From the NCBI GenBank assembly GCA_963758525.1, contig CAVWVQ010000001.1, positions 224,001 through 288,000 of the forward strand: a stretch of DNA of 64,000 nt, read 5' to 3'. Made by a program: the position numbers and the translations under genes. The stretch is from an uncultured Phycisphaerales bacterium. Lineage in GTDB: Bacteria; Planctomycetota; Phycisphaerae; Tepidisphaerales; Tepidisphaeraceae. Below the pieces are notes generated by a model. It made no database searches, was not told the origin of the DNA, and saw nothing but the letters and a program-made list of their open reading frames with translations. Below are positions 5,388 through 21,608 of this stretch, in pieces (the first letter of the stretch is position 1; each line of letters opens with the position of its first letter).

Positions 5388-5726
5388 TCACCCGGCTCTG
5401 CGCTGGTTCATGACTAGTCGCAACCCTTCCGCCACCATTTGGGACCGCTTGAGTTTGTGCCGTTTCGCGAACGAGTCCGCCTCCTTGAGGAGGGTGCGTT
5501 CGATGCTGACGGACATCACCTTCGCGCCGGCGCCGACGGTGGGGCGTCCGCGCACCTTCCGCTGGAAGCGCTTCCATATCTTGCGTTCCGCGGCATTGAG
5601 GGGACGGGACTCCGAAAGCGGAACTTCTCCGCGCTCAAATATCGCCAGCTCCGCAGCTTTCTCGGCCGGGGAAAGTGCCAGGAATTTTTCCACCGCATCC
5701 GGCTCGCGCCGCTTTGCCTTTTTCAT
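5388..5726 (-). CDS. antitoxin, C-terminal RHH/CopG DNA-binding domain
   Basis: RGRP..G..VMSVSIERTLLKEADSFAKRHKLKRSQMVAEGL; GAAAGG RBS; directly downstream of toxin-like ORF. Confidence 0.7.
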   Translation of the reverse strand: MKKAKRREPDAVEKFLALSPAEKAAELAIFERGEVPLSESRPLNAAERKIWKRFQRKVRGRPTVGAGAKVMSVSIERTLLKEADSFAKRHKLKRSQMVAEGLRLVMNQRRAG

Positions 5727-5749
5727 AAGAACGCCTTTCTTCGTTTGCA

Positions 5750-5998
5750 TCATCGCCGCCGCCGGCCGGTCATTGGCATCGCGTGAATGATGTAGTACAC
5801 CCCGTCGCGATCGATCACGTATGCCACCTGGACCCATCGATCGCCGACGCCACGGCCGATGACTTGCCATTTGTCATCCCTGACGCGCCGGGGATACGGG
5901 CGCGCGCCGCCCGCACGACGCGCTCCGCCTCCCAGACCGAACGCCGTGCCTGGCCGCATGTTCAAATTCCAGTCGTTCCAGCGGAATTCCGCTTTCAT
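5750..5998 (-). CDS. BrnT/RelE-fold toxin-like protein (probable internal compensating frameshifts)
   Basis: EFRWNDWNL..HAARHGV, QVIGRG..RWVQVAY..IIHAMP; paralogue of 6096-6359. Confidence 0.6.
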   Translation of the reverse strand: MKAEFRWNDWNLNMRPGTAFGLGGGARRAGGARPYPRRVRDDKWQVIGRGVGDRWVQVAYVIDRDGVYYIIHAMPMTGRRRR

Positions 5999-6095
5999 CT
6001 GATTTAATTATGGAGTTAATCCGCGTCGATGCAAACTTATTCCGACGGAAACTATTATTCTTGCGTCCACTCCGATTTTCGCATATATAATAATC

Positions 6096-6359
6096 GTGCG
6101 GCAAGCGGATGACTTCCGGTGGAACGATGCGAACTTGGAGCATGCGACGAAGCACGGCTGCACGATCGCTGAGATCGAGCATCTGCTGCTGAATATTCCG
6201 CACGGATTTCCGCGCAGGATTGATCGCCACAAACGGCTGGTCATAGGACGCGGGCAGGGCGGACGACTCATCAGGGTGATCTACCTGCTCGATCCGCCGC
6301 CCGATGCTGCTTACTACGTCCTCCACGCCATGCCGCTGACATCGCGGCGCAGGCGGTGA
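6096..6359 (+). CDS. BrnT/RelE-fold toxin-like protein
   Basis: FRWNDANLEHATKHG..EIE..LVIGRG..RLIRVIY..VLHAMP. Confidence 0.7.
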   Translation: MRQADDFRWNDANLEHATKHGCTIAEIEHLLLNIPHGFPRRIDRHKRLVIGRGQGGRLIRVIYLLDPPPDAAYYVLHAMPLTSRRRR

Positions 6360-6394
6360 GGATCAACACCCGGCAATGCCGGGGGAAAGGCCAC

Positions 6395-6742
6395 ATGGCT
6401 CGCAAAACTGAAAAGGAACCAGCGACAGGCCGTGACTTCGAAGCCCTGCCGCGCGCCCAACGGGAGCGGATCATGGCGGAGCTTGACGCGGCCTCGACAG
6501 AGGAGCTGCTGGCCCGCTCCAAGCCGCTCACTCGCTCGCAAGCCGCCGCCGAGCGACGTCTGTGCGATGCGGTGAACGATCGCCGGGGACGCGGACGCCC
6601 AAAAGTCGGCAAGGGATCAAAACTTGTGGCTGTCACGCTTGAACAAGGTCTGCTGGAGGAAGTCGACCGTTTCGCCAAGCGGAAGAAGATGAAGCGTTCA
6701 GAGATGATTGCCAGCGGACTGAGACTCCTGATGGCTTCATAG
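6395..6742 (+). CDS. antitoxin, C-terminal RHH/CopG DNA-binding domain
   Basis: GRGRPKVGKGSKLVAVTLEQGLLEEVDRFAKRKKMKRSEMIASGL; GGAAAGG RBS. Confidence 0.7.
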   Translation: MARKTEKEPATGRDFEALPRAQRERIMAELDAASTEELLARSKPLTRSQAAAERRLCDAVNDRRGRGRPKVGKGSKLVAVTLEQGLLEEVDRFAKRKKMKRSEMIASGLRLLMAS

Positions 6743-6854
6743 AGCGTTCGCGGATCTTTGAAACCACACTTTTTAGGCAAGCGGCCGCTGCATAACCAGC
6801 CAATGCTGTGGACGACCCGCGTTGAGACAACGCAAAGTATACCAGTACCTTGCA

Positions 6855-6882
6855 ACTTAACATAACATGGATTATCGGACGT
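6855..6882 (-). other. dif: dif site (XerC/XerD), prophage left junction
   Basis: Minus strand reads ACGTCCGATAA-TCCATG-TTATGTTAAGT: 11-6-11 layout with a near-canonical XerD arm (E. coli TTATGTTAAAT). Confidence 0.9.
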
Positions 6883-7444
6883 GCAGAAGGGCGGCCAGAG
6901 AGGCCTATAACCGGCGGACACCGTTGATAGGTGCCCGCCAGCTAGAAGCCCACGGACTCCGGCCTGATGATAAGAGCCGGGCCGTGGAGAGCCCAAGTGT
7001 ACGTCCGAATATGCCCCGAGGCAAGAAATCATCATATCACCATTGACTGACTGCTAGCGGCTTCTAACCCGCTGCGCCAGATACCACCGGTGGGCTTCTA
7101 CTCCACCAACGATACCACCTATTGAACCAAACCCCGGCCCGACGTCAAGTGCCCTGCCCAGCAAAAATTAATCTTTTTTCGTCCCCAGCGCCGATTTGAG
7201 AGCGTGCCCGCCACAAAACCATTCAACCTCGACGACGCCTACAAACTCCAAAACATCTGGCGCGGCATGCGCGTCCTATGGCTCCCAATCACATTCGCTT
7301 TTTTCGTCGGCATGGGGATAACCATCCTCAAGGCACTTTTCACGCGACGCCCTCCAAGACGCCGACGATAATTCTCGGATTACAACCCACCACCCCTTGA
7401 CAGCGATGCAATCGACCTGTAACGCGCCGCAGGCCTGCAGGCAG

Positions 7445-8482
7445 TCACCACAATTTTGCCCCCTTGCTGGCCAGCACCAACCGCCACGCCCGCAACCCCA
7501 CCAGAAACCCCAACCCCAACGCGCTCGACTCCCCATACAAATGCAGCGCGCCCTCCAACCCCGCCAGCTGCGACGACCACGGCGACAACTCCACCGCAGC
7601 GCGCGAGAGGCGCGGAGCCACTCCTCCCCCGGCCGAACCCCACGGCGCGATCGGCCAAGACGCCACGTCGTCCGCCACCACCGCCCCGCCCACGAACCGG
7701 TTATCGGACGCTCGACCACCCGCCGAATACATCCCGTTCAGGATGTTGGTTCCCCAACCCTCGCAATCATTTCCGGTTATCAAAACATTGCTCTCGCCCA
7801 TGATTTCAATAGCGGTCTTGGCCCACAACGACACGCCCGCATCCGGCCCGGTCTGCAATAACACATTATTGCTTATCGTAATGTTGCTGCCGAACCCCAC
7901 CCACTCGGACCCGTCCCAATATCCGCCCGTCGCGCACGAAATCCCGATGTGCGAATCAACCCCGGCCCCGTCAACATGCGGCAACCAAGAGGACATCGAA
8001 TTACCGTCGACCAAAAGATGCGTCATACCCTTTTGTAGCTCAATCCCGATCCGCGTCGCATGCGTGATCACGTTCCCTTGCACCGTCAGCCCGTCACAAG
8101 CGGCCGACAGATGCACCGGCTCGTAAACCGCATCAAACGTGTTGCCCACGATCCGGCCACCGTCCCCCGGGTAGCCATAAATACCGCTACCACTCACCCC
8201 CGAAAACGTGCAACCAACGATCGACCAGTCACGCGCCCCCGCCCCTATAAAGATTGCGTCCCCATCAATGCCACTGAAGCTCGACCCCTCCACCACCACC
8301 CCGACCGCCCCATCCGCAATCACGACCTGCACACCTGGTCCGGTCACACCCCGCAACGAATCGCCCGACCCCAGCCGCACAACCGACCCACACGCACCCG
8401 AGGCCCACAACAGCAGAAACACGCAACACCGCCGCTGAGTCACACCCAGGTCAGTCACCCCAATTCCAAGCAATCCACGCAT
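7445..8482 (-). CDS. right-handed beta-helix protein fused to a C-terminal minor-coat-like anchor
   Basis: Signal-like N-terminus, repeated GN-x-I/F beta-helix rungs (IVGNTF, VQGNVI, VDGNSM, ISNNVL, ITGNDC); last 35 aa are 22/35 identical to ORF 15560-15697. Confidence 0.72.
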   Translation of the reverse strand: MRGLLGIGVTDLGVTQRRCCVFLLLWASGACGSVVRLGSGDSLRGVTGPGVQVVIADGAVGVVVEGSSFSGIDGDAIFIGAGARDWSIVGCTFSGVSGSGIYGYPGDGGRIVGNTFDAVYEPVHLSAACDGLTVQGNVITHATRIGIELQKGMTHLLVDGNSMSSWLPHVDGAGVDSHIGISCATGGYWDGSEWVGFGSNITISNNVLLQTGPDAGVSLWAKTAIEIMGESNVLITGNDCEGWGTNILNGMYSAGGRASDNRFVGGAVVADDVASWPIAPWGSAGGGVAPRLSRAAVELSPWSSQLAGLEGALHLYGESSALGLGFLVGLRAWRLVLASKGAKLW

Positions 8483-8499
8483 TTCTCGTCGCACTCTTT

Positions 8500-8689
8500 T
8501 CCCTCCCTGACACGGCGACCCCCCAATGACCCCATCAAACCGTCCAGCAGCTGCATGAAAGCGCCGCACGTCCCCGCCCCACAGAAGATCGGGCCCACGA
8601 ACGACCGCGAACCCCGCCGCCTCAAACCCCCGATCCATCAGGCCAATGCCCGGAAACAACGAAAGCACGACGCCGGCACACTCACACAT
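8500..8689 (-). pseudogene. N-terminal fragment of a C5 cytosine DNA methyltransferase
   Basis: Motif I LSLFPGIG and motif IV DGVIGGSPCQ present; motifs VI (ENV), VIII and X absent. Confidence 0.7.
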
Positions 8690-8861
8690 CACGCACCACC
8701 TTCCCGGAGGGTCACACCACTCCACAAACAACACCAGCGGAAACACCCACAACCGATGCCACCGTGACACGCCCGGCCGAAACTCCAACCGCCACGCGAC
8801 GCCACACGCTCGACAAAAGCGCCCCATCACGCACCACCTTTCTCTATTACTTGCCGACACC

Positions 8862-9038
8862 TCATCCTGCGTACTCCTCATGCTCCCGGATCAAACGACG
8901 GGCAGACTCCTCGATCACTTCCCGCACCGAAGCGCCCCCGCCCAACTCGCGTCGCACGTCACCGACCATCCGCGCCCACGCCTCGACCAGCAAAGTAAAG
9001 ATCTCTCCCACCTCGCACACACACTTGTCACCTGCCAT
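8862..9038 (-). CDS. small phage hypothetical protein (58 aa, MAGDKCVCEV...)
   Basis: Translated by hand; GAAAGGA RBS; directly downstream of rep. Confidence 0.5.
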   Translation of the reverse strand: MAGDKCVCEVGEIFTLLVEAWARMVGDVRRELGGGASVREVIEESARRLIREHEEYAG

Positions 9039-9052
9039 AGCGCACGTCCTTT

Positions 9053-10080
9053 CTAAATCGGCAGCCGATCGCAGTGACGCACAGGAGCCGGAGCCGGCTC
9101 ATCTGGCAGAAGCTTGCGATCGCCGTCACTCATCCTCGAATGCCCCCTTGCAAGCAGATTCTGGAGAAACATTTCCGCCCAGGCGTCACCCTGTTCTCTC
9201 TTATGCCACTCATGAACCATCGCCAGACGCCGACTTACTGTTCTCTCCAACCATCGCTGCATCGCCTCAAGCTCCTCCACCTCCTTCGGGTAGACCTTCA
9301 CCGCCGCCACGCCGAAGCCACCCCCGGATCGTCTCCCAAAACGGAGCCCGCCGGCGGCGCTCGACATGCAACGCGCGATCCTGATAGAAGTCGATCGACC
9401 CAGCCACCAACTCCCCAATCCGCCGAACCAACTCAGCGCCGGTGTACACGCCAAGCAGCTTGTCCCACACCGCGTCGGCATGAGCCTTAAAAAACCGTGC
9501 CTCATACCTCACCGCGTTAATCTCGCCATCCGATTCCGCCGCCTTGTCATACACGCACACCACCCGCCCGCCTTCACGCTCACCGAAATAAATCGTGTTC
9601 CCCTGCCGCCCCCCCTTGCCATCCCCCTCCTGGTGATGGCGGTGGCGACCCGGCCCAAACAATCGCGGCTCTGCATACCGCTCCCACAAGTCCGCCACCT
9701 CAATCACGCGCTCGAAGTCATCGAACGCACAATCCACCCGCGTCGCCTTGACCCCATGCACCCCACGCAGCCGCAACAGAAACCCCGCCATCGTCTCCGC
9801 GTCCAGCTGCGCAAGCCTGGCCGGTCACGTTCAGACAGACATCCGGCCTCGAGAACTCATCAGGGCCGCCATCCTCACACGGCGAGAAATTCAGCGTCAC
9901 ACCCGCCGTAAAGGCGTAGTGGCACCGATACCCCCGCACAACGCCGAACCGTTCCTCATGCGGCCACCCGAACACCTCTTCCACGATGTGCAGCAACGCC
10001 CCAATCTCCGTTGCCGGCGTCACAAACGTCAGCCAATCCAAACGAAGGACAGAACGACGTACACCACTTGGCGCATCCAT
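9053..10080 (-). CDS. rolling-circle replication initiator, Rep_trans family (split by 2 frameshifts)
   Basis: LRLDWLTFV, TRVDCAFDD, TIYFGEREGG..CVYDKAAE, VRYEARF across ORFs 9718-10080, 9267-9791 and 9053-9505. Confidence 0.85.
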
Positions 10081-10299: not shown

Positions 10300-10740
10300 C
10301 ACGCCTCAGAGTTTTCATTTTCCCGCCCGCTCGAGCCGGCCCGAGCTCCGCCAGCCGGTCCCCGCCTTTGCTCAGAAACGCATTTACACGACGTGCGCAT
10401 ATGTCCACCTCGTAAAGTGTCAGATCTGATTCAATCGCAGAGCAGGGGGCGGCCCCCCTGCAACCCCCGGAAGGCGGCTCCGCCTGAAGGAAGCCGGCAA
10501 CAGCACCGGCCACGCCGGCAGCAAGCCCACCACTCCCGCAACAGTGCTGCCGTCATGTCCGGTGCAGATGCCGGCAGAAAGTGAGCGCTGCGCACAAGGA
10601 CGCTGCGCGGCCAATCTTTTTCCACCGCTCGCTGGGACGGAAGCGAGCGGCGGAAAAAAAATGTGCGGGGGGATGTTCCTGCCCGCACTCTCACGATGCC
10701 GCCGCGCTTCGCTTACCACCCGGCCCGGCCGGAAAGGATC
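10300..10740. other. phage intergenic region with multiple hairpins (candidate packaging signal / single-strand origin)
   Basis: Inverted repeats such as GCAGGGGG..CCCCCTGC (~10442-10460) and TTTTTTCC..CGCTCGCT/AGCGAGCG..GGAAAAAA (~10617-10660); no credible ORF. Confidence 0.55.
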
Positions 10741-10744
10741 CACC

Positions 10745-11155
10745 ATGGCACGCCCCACCGAACTGATCGAGATAGACGGAGAAATCGAACACTTACGCCG
10801 ACGCATCAACGATCTCACGCAATCACTCGCCGTCACAGACGCAACGGCGGACCTCGCGCGAAAGGAACTCGCACGGCTCAACGCGTACATCGGCGGAGTG
10901 CACGGCGAACACGGCCGCGGTATCGGAGCGTTACAGCAGACTTGCGCGGACCTCATCAAGAGCCTCGACGCGGTCGCAACCGAAACACAAAAGCGGCTCG
11001 ACGAGATCCGCGCCAACCTCGACGAGCTCGACGACATCGTAGAGAGCCACCTCAAGGTCACGCAGAGACTCGACGCCCGCCAAAACCAAGCACACGACTG
11101 GCTAACAGCGTTAGAAGCTCGCATAGCGCAACTCGAGGCAGACGACAACCCCTGA
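10745..11155 (+). CDS. coiled-coil phage protein (only antisense gene of the prophage)
   Basis: GAAAGGA RBS, 136 aa with heptad periodicity. Confidence 0.7.
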   Translation: MARPTELIEIDGEIEHLRRRINDLTQSLAVTDATADLARKELARLNAYIGGVHGEHGRGIGALQQTCADLIKSLDAVATETQKRLDEIRANLDELDDIVESHLKVTQRLDARQNQAHDWLTALEARIAQLEADDNP

Positions 11156-11433: not shown

Positions 11434-12902
11434 CGTCCACCTGCCTTTGCTACCGCTATCGCCGCCTCTGCCGCCGACAACCGATCCTGATCGGCCCGGT
11501 ACACGGCTTCCCACTCACGGCGAATCGCCAACACGTCACGCCCGACCTCCTCGACCGATCTATCCACCGGAGCCGGCCCCCGCCCAGGCACGTCTACCGG
11601 CCCCACCGGCTTGAGCGGCACGTCCGGCGACCCGCTCGGCCTAGGGGCCTCGCTCCCGCCGTCCGTCCGCTCCACCGGCCCGCCTGTACCCCGGCCCACG
11701 CGCGTCACGCTGGCCCACAGCTGGACGACCCGGCCGGAGCTCTCCGCGTCCGCCAACGATTGCAGCCCCAGCGTATGACTCAGCGTCCACGTGCGGCGCT
11801 CCACCTCGCCCACCAGCGCCGTCCCACCAACGTCGATCGGGGCCGAGGCGGCGAACTGGAAACCGGTCGTCGTCGGAACCCCCTGATCAGACAGCGCCAG
11901 CAACGACGTGCTGGAATAATCCACCGTCAACGCAGCACGATCCGTCCCGGCCGGACGAACAGTCAACGTCACGTCGAGGCCCACCCGATAAGGAACCAAC
12001 GTGCTTTGCGTTTGCGTCCCCTGATCATTCGTCGCCGACTGCGGCAACAGGTACGTCGTCCCATCCGACAACTTCCCCGGCACGCCGCCCGCCAGCACCA
12101 TCAGCGGCGACACCAGCGCCCGCACGTGATTGTTCTCATGGCTCGCCACAATCATGGCCTGCAACATCGCGCTTGCCACCGTCGTGACTCCACCGGTCGC
12201 GACATGGCCCAACACGCCCTGGAGCGTCACAGTCGCCGAACCGTCCCACCCCACCTTTTGCAGAAACTCGCGCGACACGTCGAACGCGTAGACGTGAATC
12301 AGCCACGCATCCGCCGGCGCCGCATCAAGCTGCGCCAACACATCGCCTATCTTCTGGTCGATTTCCACGCTGTCACCCACGACTACGATTCCGTCCTCGG
12401 TCACCGAAAGCCGCCCGGCGTCCGACAGATAGACCCGCAACAGCGCATCCAACTTATCCGGCGCGACCCGAGCACACCGACCAACGAGAACCGCGCGATC
12501 CTGCGGCCGCAATGAGCCGATAAACCACAACGACCCCAGGCGAGTCACATCCGCCCCAACGCGCCTCGCGACCGCCGCCAGCACGTCGCCCACCGGCACG
12601 CCCTGCACCCGAATATTCACTGTTGACTTATCCAACTTGGCCTCACAGATCGCCGACACGCCATCATCCACCGCCAGCCGCCCGAGGAACTGCTCGAGCG
12701 TTATGCCCTCCGCTGACAACGAAACGCGCGCCCCCGTGTCCCGTGTCTGCAGCGCCGACGCCACCGGCAGCGCTGCCGAGTACGCCGCCCGGAACTCCCG
12801 CTCCGCCCGCAACTCCGGCGCTTCTTGGCACCCAATCGCGACCGAGAGCCACATGCCGCACCACCCCGCGCCGATCGAACGTAGCAACGCCTTCAACATC
12901 AT
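11430..12902 (-). CDS. secretin (pIV-like), probable lipoprotein
   Basis: Lipobox-like VAIGC, N0 domain (VSLSAEGITLEQFL..VNIRVQGVPVGDVL), N3 domain, secretin beta domain (SPLMVLAGG..VGLDVTLTVRP). Confidence 0.8.
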   Translation of the reverse strand: MMLKALLRSIGAGWCGMWLSVAIGCQEAPELRAEREFRAAYSAALPVASALQTRDTGARVSLSAEGITLEQFLGRLAVDDGVSAICEAKLDKSTVNIRVQGVPVGDVLAAVARRVGADVTRLGSLWFIGSLRPQDRAVLVGRCARVAPDKLDALLRVYLSDAGRLSVTEDGIVVVGDSVEIDQKIGDVLAQLDAAPADAWLIHVYAFDVSREFLQKVGWDGSATVTLQGVLGHVATGGVTTVASAMLQAMIVASHENNHVRALVSPLMVLAGGVPGKLSDGTTYLLPQSATNDQGTQTQSTLVPYRVGLDVTLTVRPAGTDRAALTVDYSSTSLLALSDQGVPTTTGFQFAASAPIDVGGTALVGEVERRTWTLSHTLGLQSLADAESSGRVVQLWASVTRVGRGTGGPVERTDGGSEAPRPSGSPDVPLKPVGPVDVPGRGPAPVDRSVEEVGRDVLAIRREWEAVYRADQDRLSAAEAAIAVAKAGGR

Positions 12903-14100
12903 TCACCACCTCAAGCCGCCAACCCAACGCGGCACCACTCTCCACAGTTTCGCCCACACGCAACACGGCCCCATCCTCAAACACGACCTCTTCCCGACGC
13001 ACGAGCACCAGGCGAACAACCCCCACGCGATCGTCGACCAACGCCGGCCGACCAGCCGCTGCCCCCCCCCCCACACCACCTCCACCCCGATATCGCCCCC
13101 CGCCGAGCTCAGTCACACGATGCCCACCCACGCCCTGGTCGGTCACCCCCGCAGGCCCAGCGCCTTGTGACGCCGGCAACGCGGCCCGCATATTCTTCGC
13201 AGCAAACCCCCCGACCCCCGACACGATGCCGTGCACGAGGCACCCGCCGCCGCCACAGACGAAAAACAACGGCAACCACAAAAGCCAAGACCGCATCAAC
13301 AACGCATAAAAGTGCTTCGACACGAACCAATTGATCAGGCCCGGCCAAGACCGCCGCTCATACTCCCTCTTGCGCGGCCCGCCCGCCTGCCCGCCCCCCG
13401 ACTCCGGCTTGGAGTAGCTGTCGTAGAGCTCAAAGTACCGAGGCAGAAGGTAGTGAAACTTTTCGCGCTCGCGGATGAAGCGCGCATTAACTTCGCGCCC
13501 CAGTGTCTCCCAAACCGCCGCAAGATATGTCCCGGTAAGTTTTGCGCGTAATTCATACCAATCTCCGAGCTCGATGTGAAAAAACGGGTCGGGGCGCTCA
13601 TCACTATGAACGAGCTCACGACGGAGCCCGCTCTCATTCTTGATAACGCGCGCCACCTTCATCTCGTTCTGACTTAGAAATTCTATAGTCGCCCCCTGAT
13701 GCCGAATCGTCCCCAACCATTTCTGCCACTGCGCCAGATATGACATCTTCGCCCCGACCCCCGCATACTCATGGATTTCGTCAATGGCGATATGGGTATC
13801 GGCCAACGATTGCCCCTTGAAGAAATCCCACGGGCCGCGCTGCCCCAGCCGCCACGCCGCCAACTCCTCCTCCGGGAAACGATGCAGCCGCGCCTCATAC
13901 TCATCAGCATCGCCATTCTTATTCTTCGACCACTGCGCCGCCAAGACCGCCAACGTGCGCGGCTCATACGGAAAGTTGCTCCAATGATGCAAGTTCGTTT
14001 CCGGCAGCAACTCCTCCGAGAGGAATTTCGCACACCGCAGCAAACTCTTGCCGCTGCCGGCCCGCCCCACTGTGAATTGAACCGACGTCCTGACGGCCAT
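12664..14100 (-). CDS. Zot-like assembly ATPase (pI)
   Basis: N-terminal Walker A GRAGSGKS, Walker B IAIDEIH, RHQG..LSQ motif, central TM helix. Confidence 0.9.
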   Translation of the reverse strand: MAVRTSVQFTVGRAGSGKSLLRCAKFLSEELLPETNLHHWSNFPYEPRTLAVLAAQWSKNKNGDADEYEARLHRFPEEELAAWRLGQRGPWDFFKGQSLADTHIAIDEIHEYAGVGAKMSYLAQWQKWLGTIRHQGATIEFLSQNEMKVARVIKNESGLRRELVHSDERPDPFFHIELGDWYELRAKLTGTYLAAVWETLGREVNARFIREREKFHYLLPRYFELYDSYSKPESGGGQAGGPRKREYERRSWPGLINWFVSKHFYALLMRSWLLWLPLFFVCGGGGCLVHGIVSGVGGFAAKNMRAALPASQGAGPAGVTDQGVGGHRVTELGGGRYRGGGGVGGGAAAGRPALVDDRVGVVRLVLVRREEVVFEDGAVLRVGETVESGAALGWRLEVVNDVEGVATFDRRGVVRHVALGRDWVPRSAGVAGGAGVPGGVLGSAAGGVGAADTGHGGARFVVSGGHNARAVPRAAGGG

Positions 14101-14101
14101 A

Positions 14102-14200
14102 CTACTCCCAATCCTGCAACGCAACCCACAACAGCGCGGCCATCCCCCACCCGCAAAGCGCCAGCTTCACCAACAAGTCGACCACCACATCGGACCGCAT
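14102..14200 (-). CDS. 32-aa single-TM phage protein
   Basis: Hand-translated MRSDVVVDLLVKLALCGWGMAALLWVALQDWE; AGGGAG RBS; fills the pVI-pI gap. Confidence 0.5.
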   Translation of the reverse strand: MRSDVVVDLLVKLALCGWGMAALLWVALQDWE

Positions 14201-14226: not shown

Positions 14227-14490
14227 TCAGAACAGCCGCACGACCAGCTTGACGCAAAAGTACACAATGAACGACACCAGAAACCCCGCGAGGAGCTCAC
14301 AAAGCGTATCCAGTGGAAACCACAGATTGAGCAGCGAGCAGTACGTCGCAAGCGTCGCCAGCGTTGCGTTAGTCGGGATCGTCGGCAGCGGCGCGACCGC
14401 CAGTTGCAGCAACGTGTACCCGAGCTCGCACGCCCAATTCTCGAGGTACCCCAAGAAGTTCAGCAGCGCCTGCAACACGTAATAAATCAT
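14227..14490 (-). CDS. minor coat protein pVI-like
   Basis: 87 aa, hydrophobic, LNLWFPLDT motif, located between the pIII-like gene and Zot. Confidence 0.75.
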   Translation of the reverse strand: MIYYVLQALLNFLGYLENWACELGYTLLQLAVAPLPTIPTNATLATLATYCSLLNLWFPLDTLCELLAGFLVSFIVYFCVKLVVRLF

Positions 14491-14493
14491 GGG

Positions 14494-15521
14494 TCACCAG
14501 TCCTTCAACGTCTTCCACAACAGCCAACAAAACGACATGACCAAAAAGAATGTCGCCACCCCACGAACCGTGCCCTGCGCCCCCGACACAGCCGAACCAT
14601 AAGGCGTACCGTTCAGCGTGAACGACCCCGACTGCGGGTTAACGTCGATGCGGATTTCCGACCCGCCAAGCACACTCGGCAGATGCCAATCGACCGGCTC
14701 CAACGTCATCTGTTCAGAGAGATTCGCCGAACTGAACTGCGCGGCGAATGGAAACTTCGTGGTCAGCAACGTCTCAATCTCCCCCATGCAACTGGGCGCC
14801 GTCGTCGCGGGTTGCGTTGTCGGAGAAGGGCTGGTCGTCGTCGACGTGTCAGACGCCCCGGTAGTCGGGGCCAGCCCCGTAATCGTGATCTGCGCGTACC
14901 CCGGCGGCACCGAGTGCGACGCCCACGCATTTTGCCCTCCATTCAACGCGGTGAACAACGGCGAGAATGCCATCGTCACGTAGTAATTCGTCGCCCCGCC
15001 ACCCGACGGATACGACACGGGATCTTCCCCAAAATCCCCATTCAGCTTCGTGGCCGACGAATACGGCTCGCGCCAGTAGAACGTGTTGACATCGGTCCCC
15101 TGATCCCCAGCGTACACCTGGACCCCACCAATCCAGACCTGATACCCCGTCGCGTCGAGCTCGATCTTAAAATCCACCTCGAGCCGATCCCCGTTCGGAA
15201 CGTACGCCGACCCGCTCCAGCGCCACAAATCCAAAGCAAACGTCCCCTCATAGACGCCATTACTCCCGCTAGACCCCAACCCGCACTGGACCGTCAGCAA
15301 GTTTTGAAATGAAGGGAACCCCGAATTAACTTGGCCCGGCGGCAAGAACACGTCCGGGAACCCCGCCCGTGGGTATTGCGTCAGCGCCCCGACAGGTCCC
15401 CGTAAAAGAGGCTGCTCCCGTATTGGTACGCTACCGTCGCTTCCGCCTGAAAATCCACCGGATTGCCAGCCGCCCCACCCGCCACGACCGACAAGGCCAG
15501 CGCCACGAAGGCAACCCGCAT
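14494..15521 (-). CDS. attachment protein pIII-like (frameshifted near 15350-15390)
   Basis: Signal peptide MRVAFVALALSVVAGGAAG, beta-rich domain, Thr/Pro linker, C-terminal TM anchor, upstream of pVI. Confidence 0.7.
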
Positions 15522-15559
15522 CGCACCCAGCTCAGTCACACCACCGCCCATCGCACGCC

Positions 15560-15697
15560 TCAAAAGAATTTGGACATCTTGGAGAGCATCACCAAGCGCC
15601 ACAGCTGCAACCCGACGAGGAAACCGACGCCGAGCGCTATCGCCTCACCATATAGATTGATGGCACCCATCAACTGGCTGAACTGGTCATCCGTCAT
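15560..15697 (-). CDS. small minor coat-like protein (pVII/pIX-like), 45 aa
   Basis: Acidic N-terminus, one TM helix, basic C-terminus (MTDDQFSQLMGAINLYGEAIALGVGFLVGLQLWRLVMLSKMSKFF). Confidence 0.65.
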   Translation of the reverse strand: MTDDQFSQLMGAINLYGEAIALGVGFLVGLQLWRLVMLSKMSKFF

Positions 15698-15830: not shown

Positions 15831-15872
15831 CAAAAGGGGAGCGGAGCGCCCGCAACGCAGGCGCCCCGCTCA
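15831..15872 (-). terminator. intrinsic terminator after major coat gene
   Basis: GAGCGGGGCGCC..GGCGCTCCGCTC hairpin followed by CCCTTTT; same position as the central terminator of Ff phages. Confidence 0.6.
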
Positions 15873-15887
15873 GGCGGAAAACCGGGA

Positions 15888-16130
15888 TCAGCCACCCTTG
15901 ACGCCGCGACGCGCCCACTTCCAGAACGCGGCGAAGATCACCAGCGCGATGAACACGCCGAACAAGACACCGAGAATGGTGCCCATGTTCGCCGCAGCCG
16001 CGGTGGTCAAGGAGCCAGCGTCAACGCCGAGATCAAACGGCGTGGAATCCGCGCGGGCCGTGGCCGACAGACCCACAAGAGCAGTGCACATCAACAGTGC
16101 ACCGACGATACGAGAACGGAACCGAGACAT
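15888..16130 (-). CDS. major coat protein (pVIII-like)
   Basis: GAGGAG RBS; signal peptide ending ARA; 53-aa mature protein with acidic N-terminus, TM helix and basic WKWARRGVKGG tail. Confidence 0.85.
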   Translation of the reverse strand: MSRFRSRIVGALLMCTALVGLSATARADSTPFDLGVDAGSLTTAAAANMGTILGVLFGVFIALVIFAAFWKWARRGVKGG

Positions 16131-16201: not shown

Positions 16202-17379
16202 TCAGTCACCACCCACCATCCGACCTATCAACGCTTCCGCTTTTCCACGACACTCCACGCAGCGCGAGTTCCCCGCAATCACAGGAGCCCCACATTCCCA
16301 ACACGTAGGCGACTCCACCTCCTCCGCCTCACTCACAGCCCCCCCCGGCGAATTGTCCCCCAACTCGGAGCCCATCGACTCCAACGACTCTCCACCCGAC
16401 ACCTCCCCATACACATGATGCTCGACCGCCCCCACCACCGCGCCTTCGTTCGAGTCAATCACCATCCCCCCATCTTCGCCCGCCATCTGCCGCACGCACC
16501 GCCGACAAAAACCGCCGCCGTCACCATCGCGCTCAGCACGACTCAACCGAACCCCGCACCCGTCACACCGCCACGCATCAACCCCCGGCCCCTCCTCCAC
16601 CGCAGGCTCCGTCCCGCCTCCCACCGACCGCTTAGACCAAATCCAAAACGCGCCGAGGACCAAGAGCACAAGAACACACCGAAGATCAAACCCAGGTGAC
16701 CCCCCATCGCCGACGCCACGCTCGCCACCTTAGCCCCCACCGAACCCGAACCCGCCTTCCCCAAACCCGCCGAATCAAAGGTATAAGTGCCCGCCCCATC
16801 CCCCCCCCCACCGCCACCAGCCCCGCCACCCGAACCGCCACCACCCGAGCCACCACCGCCCGATCCGCCACCTGAACCACCGCCAGCACCGAAACCACTC
16901 CCAGGCGACGACCACAGGACCCCCGAGCCCGAAACCGTCCCATCCGTCCCCAGCGAAACGACATCGTCCACACCCGACGTCAGCACATCCGCCCCACTCA
17001 CCGCGTCCGCTTCTGCCGCAGCTAACGCCGACGAGTCACCCGCGAACCCACCGTCAAACACCACCCCACTCTCTGAATCGAAGCCCACACTCTCACGGGT
17101 CTCACCGGCGGAAACCGTATCGTAATAAAACGGCGAACCATCCACACTCACCAACTCAGTCACCCAAAACCCCTCATCATTAACGCCACCAACCAGGTTC
17201 GGAACCGAATCATCAGAAAAACTAATCGTCCGAGACTGCGCCCGACACACCCCCGGCAACACTAGAAATGCCAGCAGCCAAACCACAAGCACGGGTAGCG
17301 CACGACCAGTTGACCGCACCACACCACCCGCACCACCCACAGAACCAAGGTTACCGCAACAATCACGATCCGAGCACAT
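16202..17379 (-). CDS. passenger domain + Gly linker + major-coat paralogue + Cys-rich tail (1-nt frameshift at ~16670)
   Basis: Signal peptide (VCRA-Q), acidic beta domain, GGGS-type linker, coat-like helix 17/32 identical to pVIII, then CxxC x4. Confidence 0.65.
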
Positions 17380-17561
17380 ACACACCACCTTTCGACCGCG
17401 CACACTGACGACACGACCAAGCCTCGCATCGCGCCACCCCACACACACACGCGACCCACGACACGAGGCACCATGCGACTCCACCAAAACCAGACCACCA
17501 CGACTCACAGTCGCCCCAACCCAACAACCGCAGCTATCGCACAACGCCACCAACGAACACA

Positions 17562-17720
17562 TCACCCACCCCCCACAGCCCGAGCCGCATGCCTGGCCAG
17601 CGCCCCAAACACATTCAGCGCCACCTGAATCGACACCATCAAACCCACCACAAGCGCCAGCGTCGCCACGAGCTCACCCAACACTTCCAACGGCACAAAA
17701 CCCGGATCAGGAATAGTCAT
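17562..17720 (-). CDS. 52-aa single-TM phage protein (minor coat-like)
   Basis: Hand-translated MTIPDPGFVPLEVLGELVATLALVVGLMVSIQVALNVFGALARHAARAVGGG; TGATG coupling at both ends. Confidence 0.6.
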   Translation of the reverse strand: MTIPDPGFVPLEVLGELVATLALVVGLMVSIQVALNVFGALARHAARAVGGG

Positions 17721-17878
17721 CACTTGCCCTTAGAAAACGCCTTATCCACCCAACCCCAACCCCGCGCCGCCTGAATCAGCAGGTGGATCGTCAGGCCGCA
17801 CCCGAATCCCACCCCCACCCCGATCCGCAGGAGCTCCCACGCCGTCGCGACCTCGATCGTTGGCATTGTCGTAGGCAT
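17720..17878 (-). CDS. 52-aa single-TM phage protein (minor coat-like)
   Basis: Hand-translated MPTTMPTIEVATAWELLRIGVGVGFGCGLTIHLLIQAARGWGWVDKAFSKGK; GAAAGG RBS. Confidence 0.6.
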   Translation of the reverse strand: MPTTMPTIEVATAWELLRIGVGVGFGCGLTIHLLIQAARGWGWVDKAFSKGK

Positions 17879-18583: not shown

Positions 18584-18611
18584 CAATTGCATAACATGGA
18601 TTATCGGACGT
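18584..18611 (-). other. prophage right junction, dif-like site with degenerate XerD arm
   Basis: Minus strand ACGTCCGATAA-TCCATG-TTATGCAATTG. Confidence 0.85.
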
Positions 18612-19952: not shown

Positions 19953-21283
19953 TTAGTCGGTAAGCCGGTCCATGAGAAATCCCCTGATCTGGTCAATGCC
20001 GATCCGCTGCTGGCGCATCGAGTCACGTTCCCGGAGAGTGACTGTCTGATCTTCCGCAGTCTGGCCGTCCACAGTGATGCAAAAGGGCGTGCCGGCCTCG
20101 TCCTGACGGCGGTATCGCCGCCCCACCGCGCCCTTCTCATCGTAGAAAACGGGCCAGTGCTTTTGCAGATCGTGATAGATCGCCATCGCCCGCTCCGGCA
20201 TTCCCTCTTTTTTCACCAGCGGGAAGATCGCCGCTTTCATCGGCGCGAGGCGCGGCTTGAATCGCAGCACGGTTCGCATCTCCCCTTCGACCTGCTCCTC
20301 GGCATAGGCCTCGCACAAAAACGCCAGCGTCGCGCGCGTGGCCCCCGCCGCCGGCTCGATGACATGCGGAACGAATCGCTCCTTGGTTTCGTCGTCGAAG
20401 TAACTGAGGTCCTTGCCGCTGAATTTGATGTGCTGCTGCAGGTCGTAGTCGCCGCGGTGAGCGATGCCCTCCAGTTCGCCCCATCCCCAGGGGAATTTGT
20501 ATTCGATGTCGCTGGTGCCGCTGGAATAAAACGCCAGCTCGTTCTTTTCGTGCTCGCGGAGGCGCAGGTTTTCGCCGGCCAATCCCAATTGCTGATACCA
20601 GGCGAAACGCCGGTCGCGCCACTGGCGATAGGTGTCCTGGCTGTCCTGCGGCTTGCAGAAATATTCGATCTCCATCAACTCGAATTCGCGCGAGCGGAAG
20701 ATGAACTGCTTGGGCGTGATCTCGTTGCGGAAGGCCTTGCCGATCTGCGCGATGCCGAACGGCAGTTTCACGCGCGTCGAATCGCAGACGTTTCTGAAGT
20801 TGACGAACATCCCCTGCGCCGTCTCGGGCGCAGATAGACCGTCGCGGCATTCTCTTCCACCGGGCCGACAAACGTTTTGAACATCAAGTTGAACTTGCGG
20901 GCGTCGGTTAGCTGGCAGTCCGCGAACTGCCCGGGCGGCTTCGAGGGTTTTCGCGGGCAGGCGCTCTCGGCGATCTGATCGGCACGAAACCGCGCCTGGC
21001 AAGTCTTGCAATCCACCAGCGGATCGGTGAACGCCGCTTCGTGCCCGCTGGCCTGCCAGACGGTGCGGTTCATCAGAATAGCTGAGTCGAGGCCGACGAC
21101 ATCGTCGCGGGTGGTGACGTTGTCATGCCACCATGCGTTCTTGACGTTGCGCAGCAATTCGACGCCCAGGGGGCCGTAATCCCAGGTTCCGGTGAGTCCG
21201 CCGTAGATTTCGGAGCCGGGGTAGACAAAGCCGCGGCGTTTGCAAAGGGAGACGAGTTTGTCCAGCGTTCCAGCTTCAGCCAT
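19953..21283 (-). CDS. glyQS: glycine--tRNA ligase, homodimeric type (frameshift ~20830)
   Basis: [50 protein letters not shown]. Confidence 0.95.
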
Positions 21284-21608
21284 GATGAACGACCTCCGAC
21301 CCCGCGACAGCCGCGGTTGCCGCTCCGCAGCGCCTCGCGTGGCAAAATCCCGGGAGGACACCCTTCATTCCTCCCCTGGTGCGCCCGGGGAGGATTGAGG
21401 TCGGGACAGACGGTGCGGATCGCAAGATATGGCTCCGTTAGCCGTTTAGAGCCGGTTTCATTACCCCCTCTCCCGGATTGCCGGCAGAGGGAGTAGGTCG
21501 CTCGAAGTTCTGAAACGTCCTCTTGGCCCGCAGCAGGCCCAAAGGCGTATTTCACGATTTCAGCGCGCTCCGTGCGCGTCGCGGCTAAACAGGGATCTGA
21601 AGCTGCCT

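Follow-up and report, generated by a model that had tools for sequence, protein, structure and literature searches.

A pVIII paralogue with an acidic passenger domain in a planctomycete inovirus prophage: a candidate natural counterpart of two-gene phage display

In the usual picture of the inovirus capsid, a single major coat protein is joined by four tip proteins, and large fusions to pVIII are known from the laboratory, among them the engineered two-gene display format labelled "type 88" or "8+8." As described in the available parts of the sources, pVIII of the Ff phages is exported through a type I signal and anchored by the helix at its C terminus, and its C-terminal lysines, which line a narrow lumen, bind the DNA (PMC4823517, PMC10175506); in f1, this lysine-lined lumen measures 20 Å at its widest, at the pIII tip (PMC10175506). 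N-terminal insertions into pVIII beyond about six residues require wild-type pVIII alongside, as stated in the accessible portion of PMC11082904. Planctomycete inoviruses are already known, with five species in supplement file 5 of the study by Roux et al. 2019 (PMC6813254), which, in its available sections, defines structural proteins as 30 to 90 amino acids (aa) long after signal removal. A fusion of the size reported here would fall outside that filter because of this limit, and the same sections make no mention of pVIII duplicates with passengers. Likewise, no description of natural passenger-bearing pVIII duplicates was found in the literature searched (titles and abstract openings, with subscription journals thinly covered). 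The passenger-bearing pVIII would thus be a new form of inovirus coat in a host group whose inoviruses as such are known.

Judged against the accessible descriptions of Ff pVIII (f1, fd and M13; PMC10175506, PMC4823517, PMC11082904), the gene reported here is alike in its predicted type I signal, its amphipathic-then-hydrophobic helix with a basic C-terminal end and its place in a pV-to-pVIII block before a terminator. Unlike Ff pVIII, it is a second copy beside an intact pVIII gene, with about 150 extra passenger and linker residues predicted to lie outside, two basic residues versus four and, in this assembly, a 136-aa Zn-ribbon tail at the pVIII stop. A signal followed by a foreign domain, a Gly/Ser linker and the pVIII helix, with wild-type pVIII alongside, also makes up engineered two-gene display, as far as it is set out in the available part of PMC11082904; here, however, the arrangement evolved naturally, the helix now shares about 53% identity with pVIII and incorporation is a prediction. 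An exported domain, a glycine-rich linker and a coat-helix anchor are found in minor coat protein pIII as well, but the anchor of the present gene is pVIII derived and the element has its own pIII-like and pVI-like genes. With the planctomycete inoviruses of Roux et al. 2019, in the parts of that study available, the element shares the pI marker, short single-transmembrane structural genes and integration in planctomycete hosts. A natural passenger-linker-pVIII gene would show filament surfaces decorated by evolved accessory subunits, would point to a class of structural genes skipped by size-based inovirus annotation and would put evolved anchor helices and linkers on offer for display technology.

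The stretch analyzed (the window; 64,000 nucleotides, G000:C1:224001-288000) belongs to a host genome of 6.47 Mb in six contigs. Judged by its gene content and att sites, the 11.75-kb element at about 6.9 to 18.6 kb of the window, in a dif-like integration site, is an inovirus prophage. It encodes the inovirus marker pI, a Zot-like morphogenesis ATPase (12664 to 14124, minus strand; phrog_197, E = 1.6e-7; 52 homologues, many with PF05707), a pIV secretin (phrog_1012, E = 1e-6), a rolling-circle initiator of the Rep_trans type (E = 3e-18) and short single-helix structural genes, with separate pIII-like and pVI-like genes at about 14227 to 15600. Its 22-bp att cores (left, 6861 to 6882, dif-like on the minus strand; right, 18590 to 18611; both given for the plus strand) are exact direct repeats, which was the case in 0 of 100 shuffles, and the empty site of a genome of the same genus, G095, holds a single copy. 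The core resembles dif sequences printed in the available part of a 2011 survey (PMC3025954), and integration by host XerCD is likely; in that survey, dif prediction failed in the one planctomycete tested. The dif-like site at 6853 to 6882, with its empty copy in G095, may mark dif for the host lineage.

Throughout the element, the minus strand shows a strong G/T skew (47% G, 26% T), a composition that favors Gly, Val, Cys and Trp and in which stops are rare. The major coat protein pVIII, with a signal peptide, is encoded at 15888 to 16130 (minus strand) and reaches 41.2 bits with a profile built from 13 related pVIII sequences; the full profile consists of 14 sequences picked by eye, the phage's own being left out here. 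A strong hairpin terminator follows 3' of pVIII (15839 to 15871), and the passenger-coat gene lies upstream of both. Named pI relatives are mostly from planctomycetes, with some from Verrucomicrobiota and Lentisphaeria, a distribution that makes a planctomycete the likely host, and matches to the pI profile are rare (7/401 genomes of the class, 4/401 of the phylum). No relatives were found in viral contigs (queries pVIII, pI, the pI of the related contig L040, the homologue P0056 and the tail), in metagenome contigs searched with a single pI or in GenBank phages searched with pI, and the PDB searched with pVIII gave nothing significant. Between the secretin and Rep genes, an opposite-strand ORF (10544 to 11155, plus strand) encodes a 203-aa coiled-coil protein with no family above the cutoff. 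Additionally, two small gene pairs on opposite strands lie just outside the left att (5388 to 6742), which we take to resemble toxin-antitoxin pairs of the BrnT/ribbon-helix-helix type.

The passenger-coat gene is present as two minus-strand ORFs, one frame apart (17565/17562 to 16543 and 16669 to 16202), in which the order given in the preliminary description, namely, a putative signal segment, an acidic domain, a Gly/Ser linker and a pVIII-like helix directly upstream of pVIII, could be confirmed. The upstream frame is open for 61 codons beyond the extent recognized there, up to an ATG at 17562, and this extension holds a previously missed zinc-finger-like motif, CxxC-H-CxGS (17452 to 17541, minus strand), ahead of the signal segment. 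The motif is in frame with the passenger both here and in P0056, with which it is shared (15/25 identical, pairwise E = 3e-5), while the spacer between motif and signal differs between the two; the ATG at 17562 and an internal GTG near 17322 are the candidate starts. The putative signal peptide (17239 to 17322, minus strand; hydropathy, 2.54), called from its hydropathy and an AxA-type motif, has a predicted cleavage site after CRA, and similarity to P0056 turns continuous directly after this presumed site.

The passenger domain itself (16903 to 17238, minus strand) consists of 112 aa, with 19 D/E versus 2 K/R, an acidity that suggests cation or surface binding or an altered filament charge. 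It has no Pfam or PHROG family match, its ORF found no usable match in the ESM Atlas, and single-sequence AlphaFold2 models are of low confidence, with pLDDT values of 39.9 for P0056 and 56.4 for the downstream ORF. The beta fold ascribed to the domain in the preliminary description is thus putative. A Gly/Ser linker (16789 to 16902), read directly and shorter in P0056, leads into the pVIII-paralogue helix (16613 to 16782), which aligns with pVIII at the protein and DNA levels and whose reading frame is offset by one base at 16671-16670. The frame of the latter half of the helix continues into an acidic tail of 136 aa (16202 to 16612; all on the minus strand) with two candidate CxxC/CxxC zinc ribbons (16567 and 16507; 16303 and 16261). 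As assembled, with its tail, the mature product would have about 345 aa, compared with the about 50 aa and short basic end of a pVIII; P0056 has the short end but exceeds that length. Going by its predicted domain order, it is a pVIII-derived fusion and not a major coat protein.

Read with an X at the break, the helix is identical to the phage's own pVIII at 17/32 positions (about 53%; local score, 108), which bears out the identity previously reported after frame repair near 16670. None of 20,000 shuffles reached this score (maximum, 58), and the 2,805 hydrophobic stretches taken from host ORFs in all six frames, some of which may be noncoding, stayed below it as well (maximum, 56). The alignment to pVIII is thus significant against shuffled transmembrane controls, a comparison on which the preliminary description had staked its claim. 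Taken separately, the parts of the helix on either side of the break each score above 10,000/10,000 shuffles, and at the DNA level the helix is collinear with the pVIII gene except for one gap of a single base, located at the break. Frame 0 as assembled is identical at just 11/32 positions and lacks a full transmembrane segment (peak hydropathy, 1.66 versus 2.56). Against the family profile without the phage's own pVIII, the helix scores weakly (8.6 bits, rank 28 among controls). This weak score, next to the high score against its own pVIII, marks the helix as a copy of the coat gene of its own lineage rather than a conserved family member; of the four basic DNA-facing residues of pVIII, it retains two.

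One could also take the two ORFs for unrelated genes that resemble pVIII because they are G/T-rich and hydrophobic in composition, and both the strand composition given above and the weak profile score are in keeping with that idea. We give it next to no credence, since none of the 20,000 shuffles or 2,805 controls reaches the score, the likeness is significant on each side of the break and collinear with pVIII in the DNA, and the homologue P0056, a single ORF, already contradicts it. A third, weaker pVIII-like helix of 53 aa lies at 17562 to 17723 (minus strand), scores 57 against the phage's own pVIII (0/2,805 host controls, 1/10,000 shuffles) and has a stop that overlaps the next ATG (TGATG).

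A homologue search for the coat-fusion architecture, covering proteins of 129 to 413 aa, returned one true relative, P0056 (247 aa), with a passenger 65% identical to that described here (E = 2.8e-35). In P0056, the Cys/His motif, signal segment, passenger, Gly/Ser linker and coat-like helix form one ORF, so that the outcome named earlier as fatal to the fusion, homologues consisting of two independent genes without coat likeness, is not what was observed. The protein stops one residue before the position at which pVIII does, without Zn ribbons, and when its last 19 residues are compared with the two frames at the break, the -1 frame scores +21 and frame 0 scores -11. Its C-terminal part exceeds 10,000/10,000 shuffles against this phage's own pVIII, narrowly (58 versus 57), and P0056 scores 3.5 bits against the family profile without that pVIII. 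Among the relatives of the present pI, P0004, P0005, P0006 and P0007 span identities of 53 to 81%. P0006, a pI with 81% identity that putatively comes from the same source, itself looks frameshifted, and the end of P0056, which is known here from the protein alone, could therefore also be an error. Two other candidates, P0057 and P0058, were rejected as homologues since they match mostly via the Gly-rich linker, and two weak matches to the N-terminal part and passenger among 140 family genomes contain internal stops and were rejected as chance.

The frame break at 16671-16670 is likely an assembly error, to judge from comparison of the host genome with G095. Over 400 kb of G095, 20/114 matched genes change frame, or about 1 per 7 kb, and by DNA alignment these changes comprise 10 1-bp deletions and 7 2-bp deletions in G000, with 1 insertion, 1 unclear case and 1 without a gap making up the remainder. 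At this rate, a one-base loss in a 1.3-kb gene is expected roughly one time in six. Only 4 kb from the passenger-coat gene, glyQS (19953 to 21361) is split by a one-base offset near 20810 to 20828; it is whole in 2/2 same-genus genomes (G095 and G096).

Further apparent breaks were seen by eye in the element, in which Rep (9053 to 10080) is spread over three frames with two breaks and the signal segment of pIII (14494 to 15602) does not share a frame with the protein body. Together with the present gene, this makes about four apparent breaks, versus about 1.6 expected from the host rate, an excess that speaks for a decayed prophage in which the frameshift and the lost stop would be real mutations, leaving a pseudogene in this strain and a functional gene in relatives. 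We regard such decay as improbable, given that pI and the secretin are whole, that both att repeats are perfect and that essential host genes such as glyQS carry the same deletion-type breaks.

A programmed shift had been raised as a possibility; as a -1 frameshift, it would yield a short product that is released and a longer one that stays anchored. An X XXY YYZ heptamer does stand in phase at 16693, with frame 0 open to 16543. However, this heptamer, the only one of slippery pattern nearby, lies about 15 nucleotides upstream of the switch required by homology, the likeness to pVIII running on for five codons in frame 0, and a slip there would insert Asp and Arg into the hydrophobic helix. 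Since, moreover, 22 such heptamers occur across the element and P0056 is a single ORF that needs no shift, the suggestion of programming is not supported, and we hold it to be very unlikely.

As for the tail, all eight Cys residues of the downstream ORF fall into four CxxC pairs, an arrangement produced by 0 of 100,000 residue shuffles; the four motifs reported before are therefore real and nonrandom. The match of the tail to Pfam DZR (PF12773; E = 0.0025) stays below the curated cutoff (18.4 versus 27.3 bits), the two ribbons being about 65 aa apart, and the ESM Atlas gave leads at 0.75 to 0.77, one of them a named zinc ribbon. No tail homologues were found among proteins of 85 to 272 aa, a range outside which fused tail-only relatives of about 390 to 450 aa would fall, or in viral contigs.

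The first codon of the tail occupies the position of the pVIII stop codon, and a coat helix is followed by a Zn-finger frame twice more in the element: the third helix (17723 to 17562) is TGATG coupled to such a frame, and a stand-alone small CxxC-H-CxGS zinc-finger ORF (15827 to 15687, minus strand), recognized by its motif, lies 3' of pVIII. The CxxC-H-CxGS motif occurs four times in the whole genome, two of them in this element, and 0 of 500 simulations of the element gave two. Most simply, a block consisting of a coat helix and a Zn finger would have been duplicated more than once, the stop of the middle helix being lost in evolution or in assembly; the double Zn ribbon is likely a neighboring small Zn-finger gene joined via stop loss. 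We rate a genuine helix-tail fusion in this strain as slightly more probable than not. Both that Zn-ribbon fusion and the frameshift are probably peculiar to the strain or assembly at hand, and the more exotic idea of a coat subunit bearing Zn ribbons at its DNA-facing end derives from a single error-prone assembly. With P0056 lacking the tail and no tail relative found in the searches above, the inner double Zn ribbon proposed earlier is not supported as a conserved design.

Duplicated coat helices are not confined to this phage. Among 40 loci obtained from pI searches, 26 had a pVIII and 14, many of them short or cut, had none; the 26 represent 22 different pVIII sequences. In 9 of these 22 related phages, a second helix scores higher against its cognate pVIII than any of the 2,805 controls, and at most 1/10,000 shuffles reach these scores. 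Five of the nine paralogues carry tails: L009 (12086-12382; tail of 51 aa), L018 (5165-5587; 54 aa), L019 (7611-7973; 68 aa), L030 (7605-7964; 49 aa) and L066 (10167-10478; 25 aa). A further one, in L027 (2-409; 74 aa), was detected by profile only. Tails of 25 to 68 aa in 5/9 relatives suggest that many paralogues never enter the filament, and the tailed copies may form a family of membrane-retained coat mimics. Tailed paralogues, with charged C-terminal extensions of 25 to 74 aa, are sited before pVIII or between pVI and pI. Short copies directly after pVIII are found in L024, L066, L068 and L069.

L040, a circular inovirus contig of 7.6 kb, contains after pVIII a gene (7368-7623 joined by terminal overlap to 3-800) in whose product a signal and a passenger are followed by a long linker of Gly, Ser, Asp and Pro and then by a helix identical at 16/35 positions to the pVIII of L040; the protein ends seven residues after this helix. 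By composition-adjusted BLASTP, the helix matches that pVIII at E = 0.23 only; two CxxC motifs of the passenger lie on the predicted outer side. Because the passenger of L040 is unrelated to that of P0056, the passenger-linker-pVIII design appears to have arisen at least twice. On the strength of the present gene, P0056 and the distant L040, we conclude from the predicted proteins that this fusion is real and recurrent.

We propose that the two ORFs of the passenger-coat gene form a single gene, interrupted by what is likely an error of assembly, and that its pVIII duplicate with an acidic passenger serves as a low-copy decorated coat subunit, that is, a natural two-gene display, a reading to which we assign a probability of roughly 0.5. 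Sec export and signal cleavage would bring the passenger into the periplasm, the paralogue helix would anchor in the inner membrane as pVIII does, and pI would pack occasional copies among normal pVIII, with the passenger outside. It is from the tailless P0056 and L040, which match the layout of two-gene display, that we infer such occasional incorporation; relatives without a tail would assemble into the filament. If the tail join is real in this strain, its 136 aa would be too large for a lumen of ~20 Å, and the copy would stay in the membrane. What stands of the interpretation given in the preliminary description, then, is one gene with a signal, passenger, linker and pVIII paralogue, as seen in P0056; the inner Zn ribbon, as a conserved design, and the programmed shift are not supported.

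As the main alternative, retention in the membrane might also be the normal fate of a full-length product, Zn ribbons included, acting as a pVIII mimic with a periplasmic passenger and cytoplasmic Zn domains that throttles assembly at pI or blocks superinfection. As the sequence stands, helix and tail share a frame and the tail is clearly coding, tailed pVIII paralogues recur (L009, L018, L019, L030 and L066, with L027 by profile only), the paralogue has half of the basic residues of pVIII, and the f1 lumen is 20 Å at its widest, according to the accessible part of PMC10175506. Yet P0056 and L040 carry passengers without a tail, a CxxC pair was present in 0/6 of the other tails read, and a cleavable signal with a long flexible linker would fit display better than signaling, which makes the mimic, in our estimation, an unlikely though not a far-fetched explanation.

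In addition to the pVIII-based fusions, passengers were found on pVII/pIX-like helices: a beta-helix in this element, a LamG domain in L011 and an unknown domain in L003. We speculate, with slightly less than even confidence, that planctomycete inoviruses and their relatives have repeatedly invented display, duplicating pVIII and pVII/pIX-like helices and placing unrelated exported domains on them through Gly-rich linkers, so that mosaic filaments with swappable passengers would set surface chemistry or binding range. If so, the present phage would carry two such displays and a third coat helix.

The right-handed beta-helix ORF of this element (7445 to 8881, minus strand; PF13229, E = 5e-12) ends in a copy of a pVII/pIX-like helix that is 58% identical to that at 15563 to 15694, and its 5' part is a DNA methyltransferase-like fragment. 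Seven related beta-helix stretches lie elsewhere in the host genome, which suggests that this passenger may be host derived. Similarly, a minor-coat gene with a signal and a passenger follows pVIII in L011 (11446-12375; LamG, E = 2.7e-14) and in L003 (2990-3457). Finally, two genomes contain two pI copies 11 to 19 kb apart (L017/L018; G751:C1, near 686 kb and 705 kb), which suggests tandem prophages.
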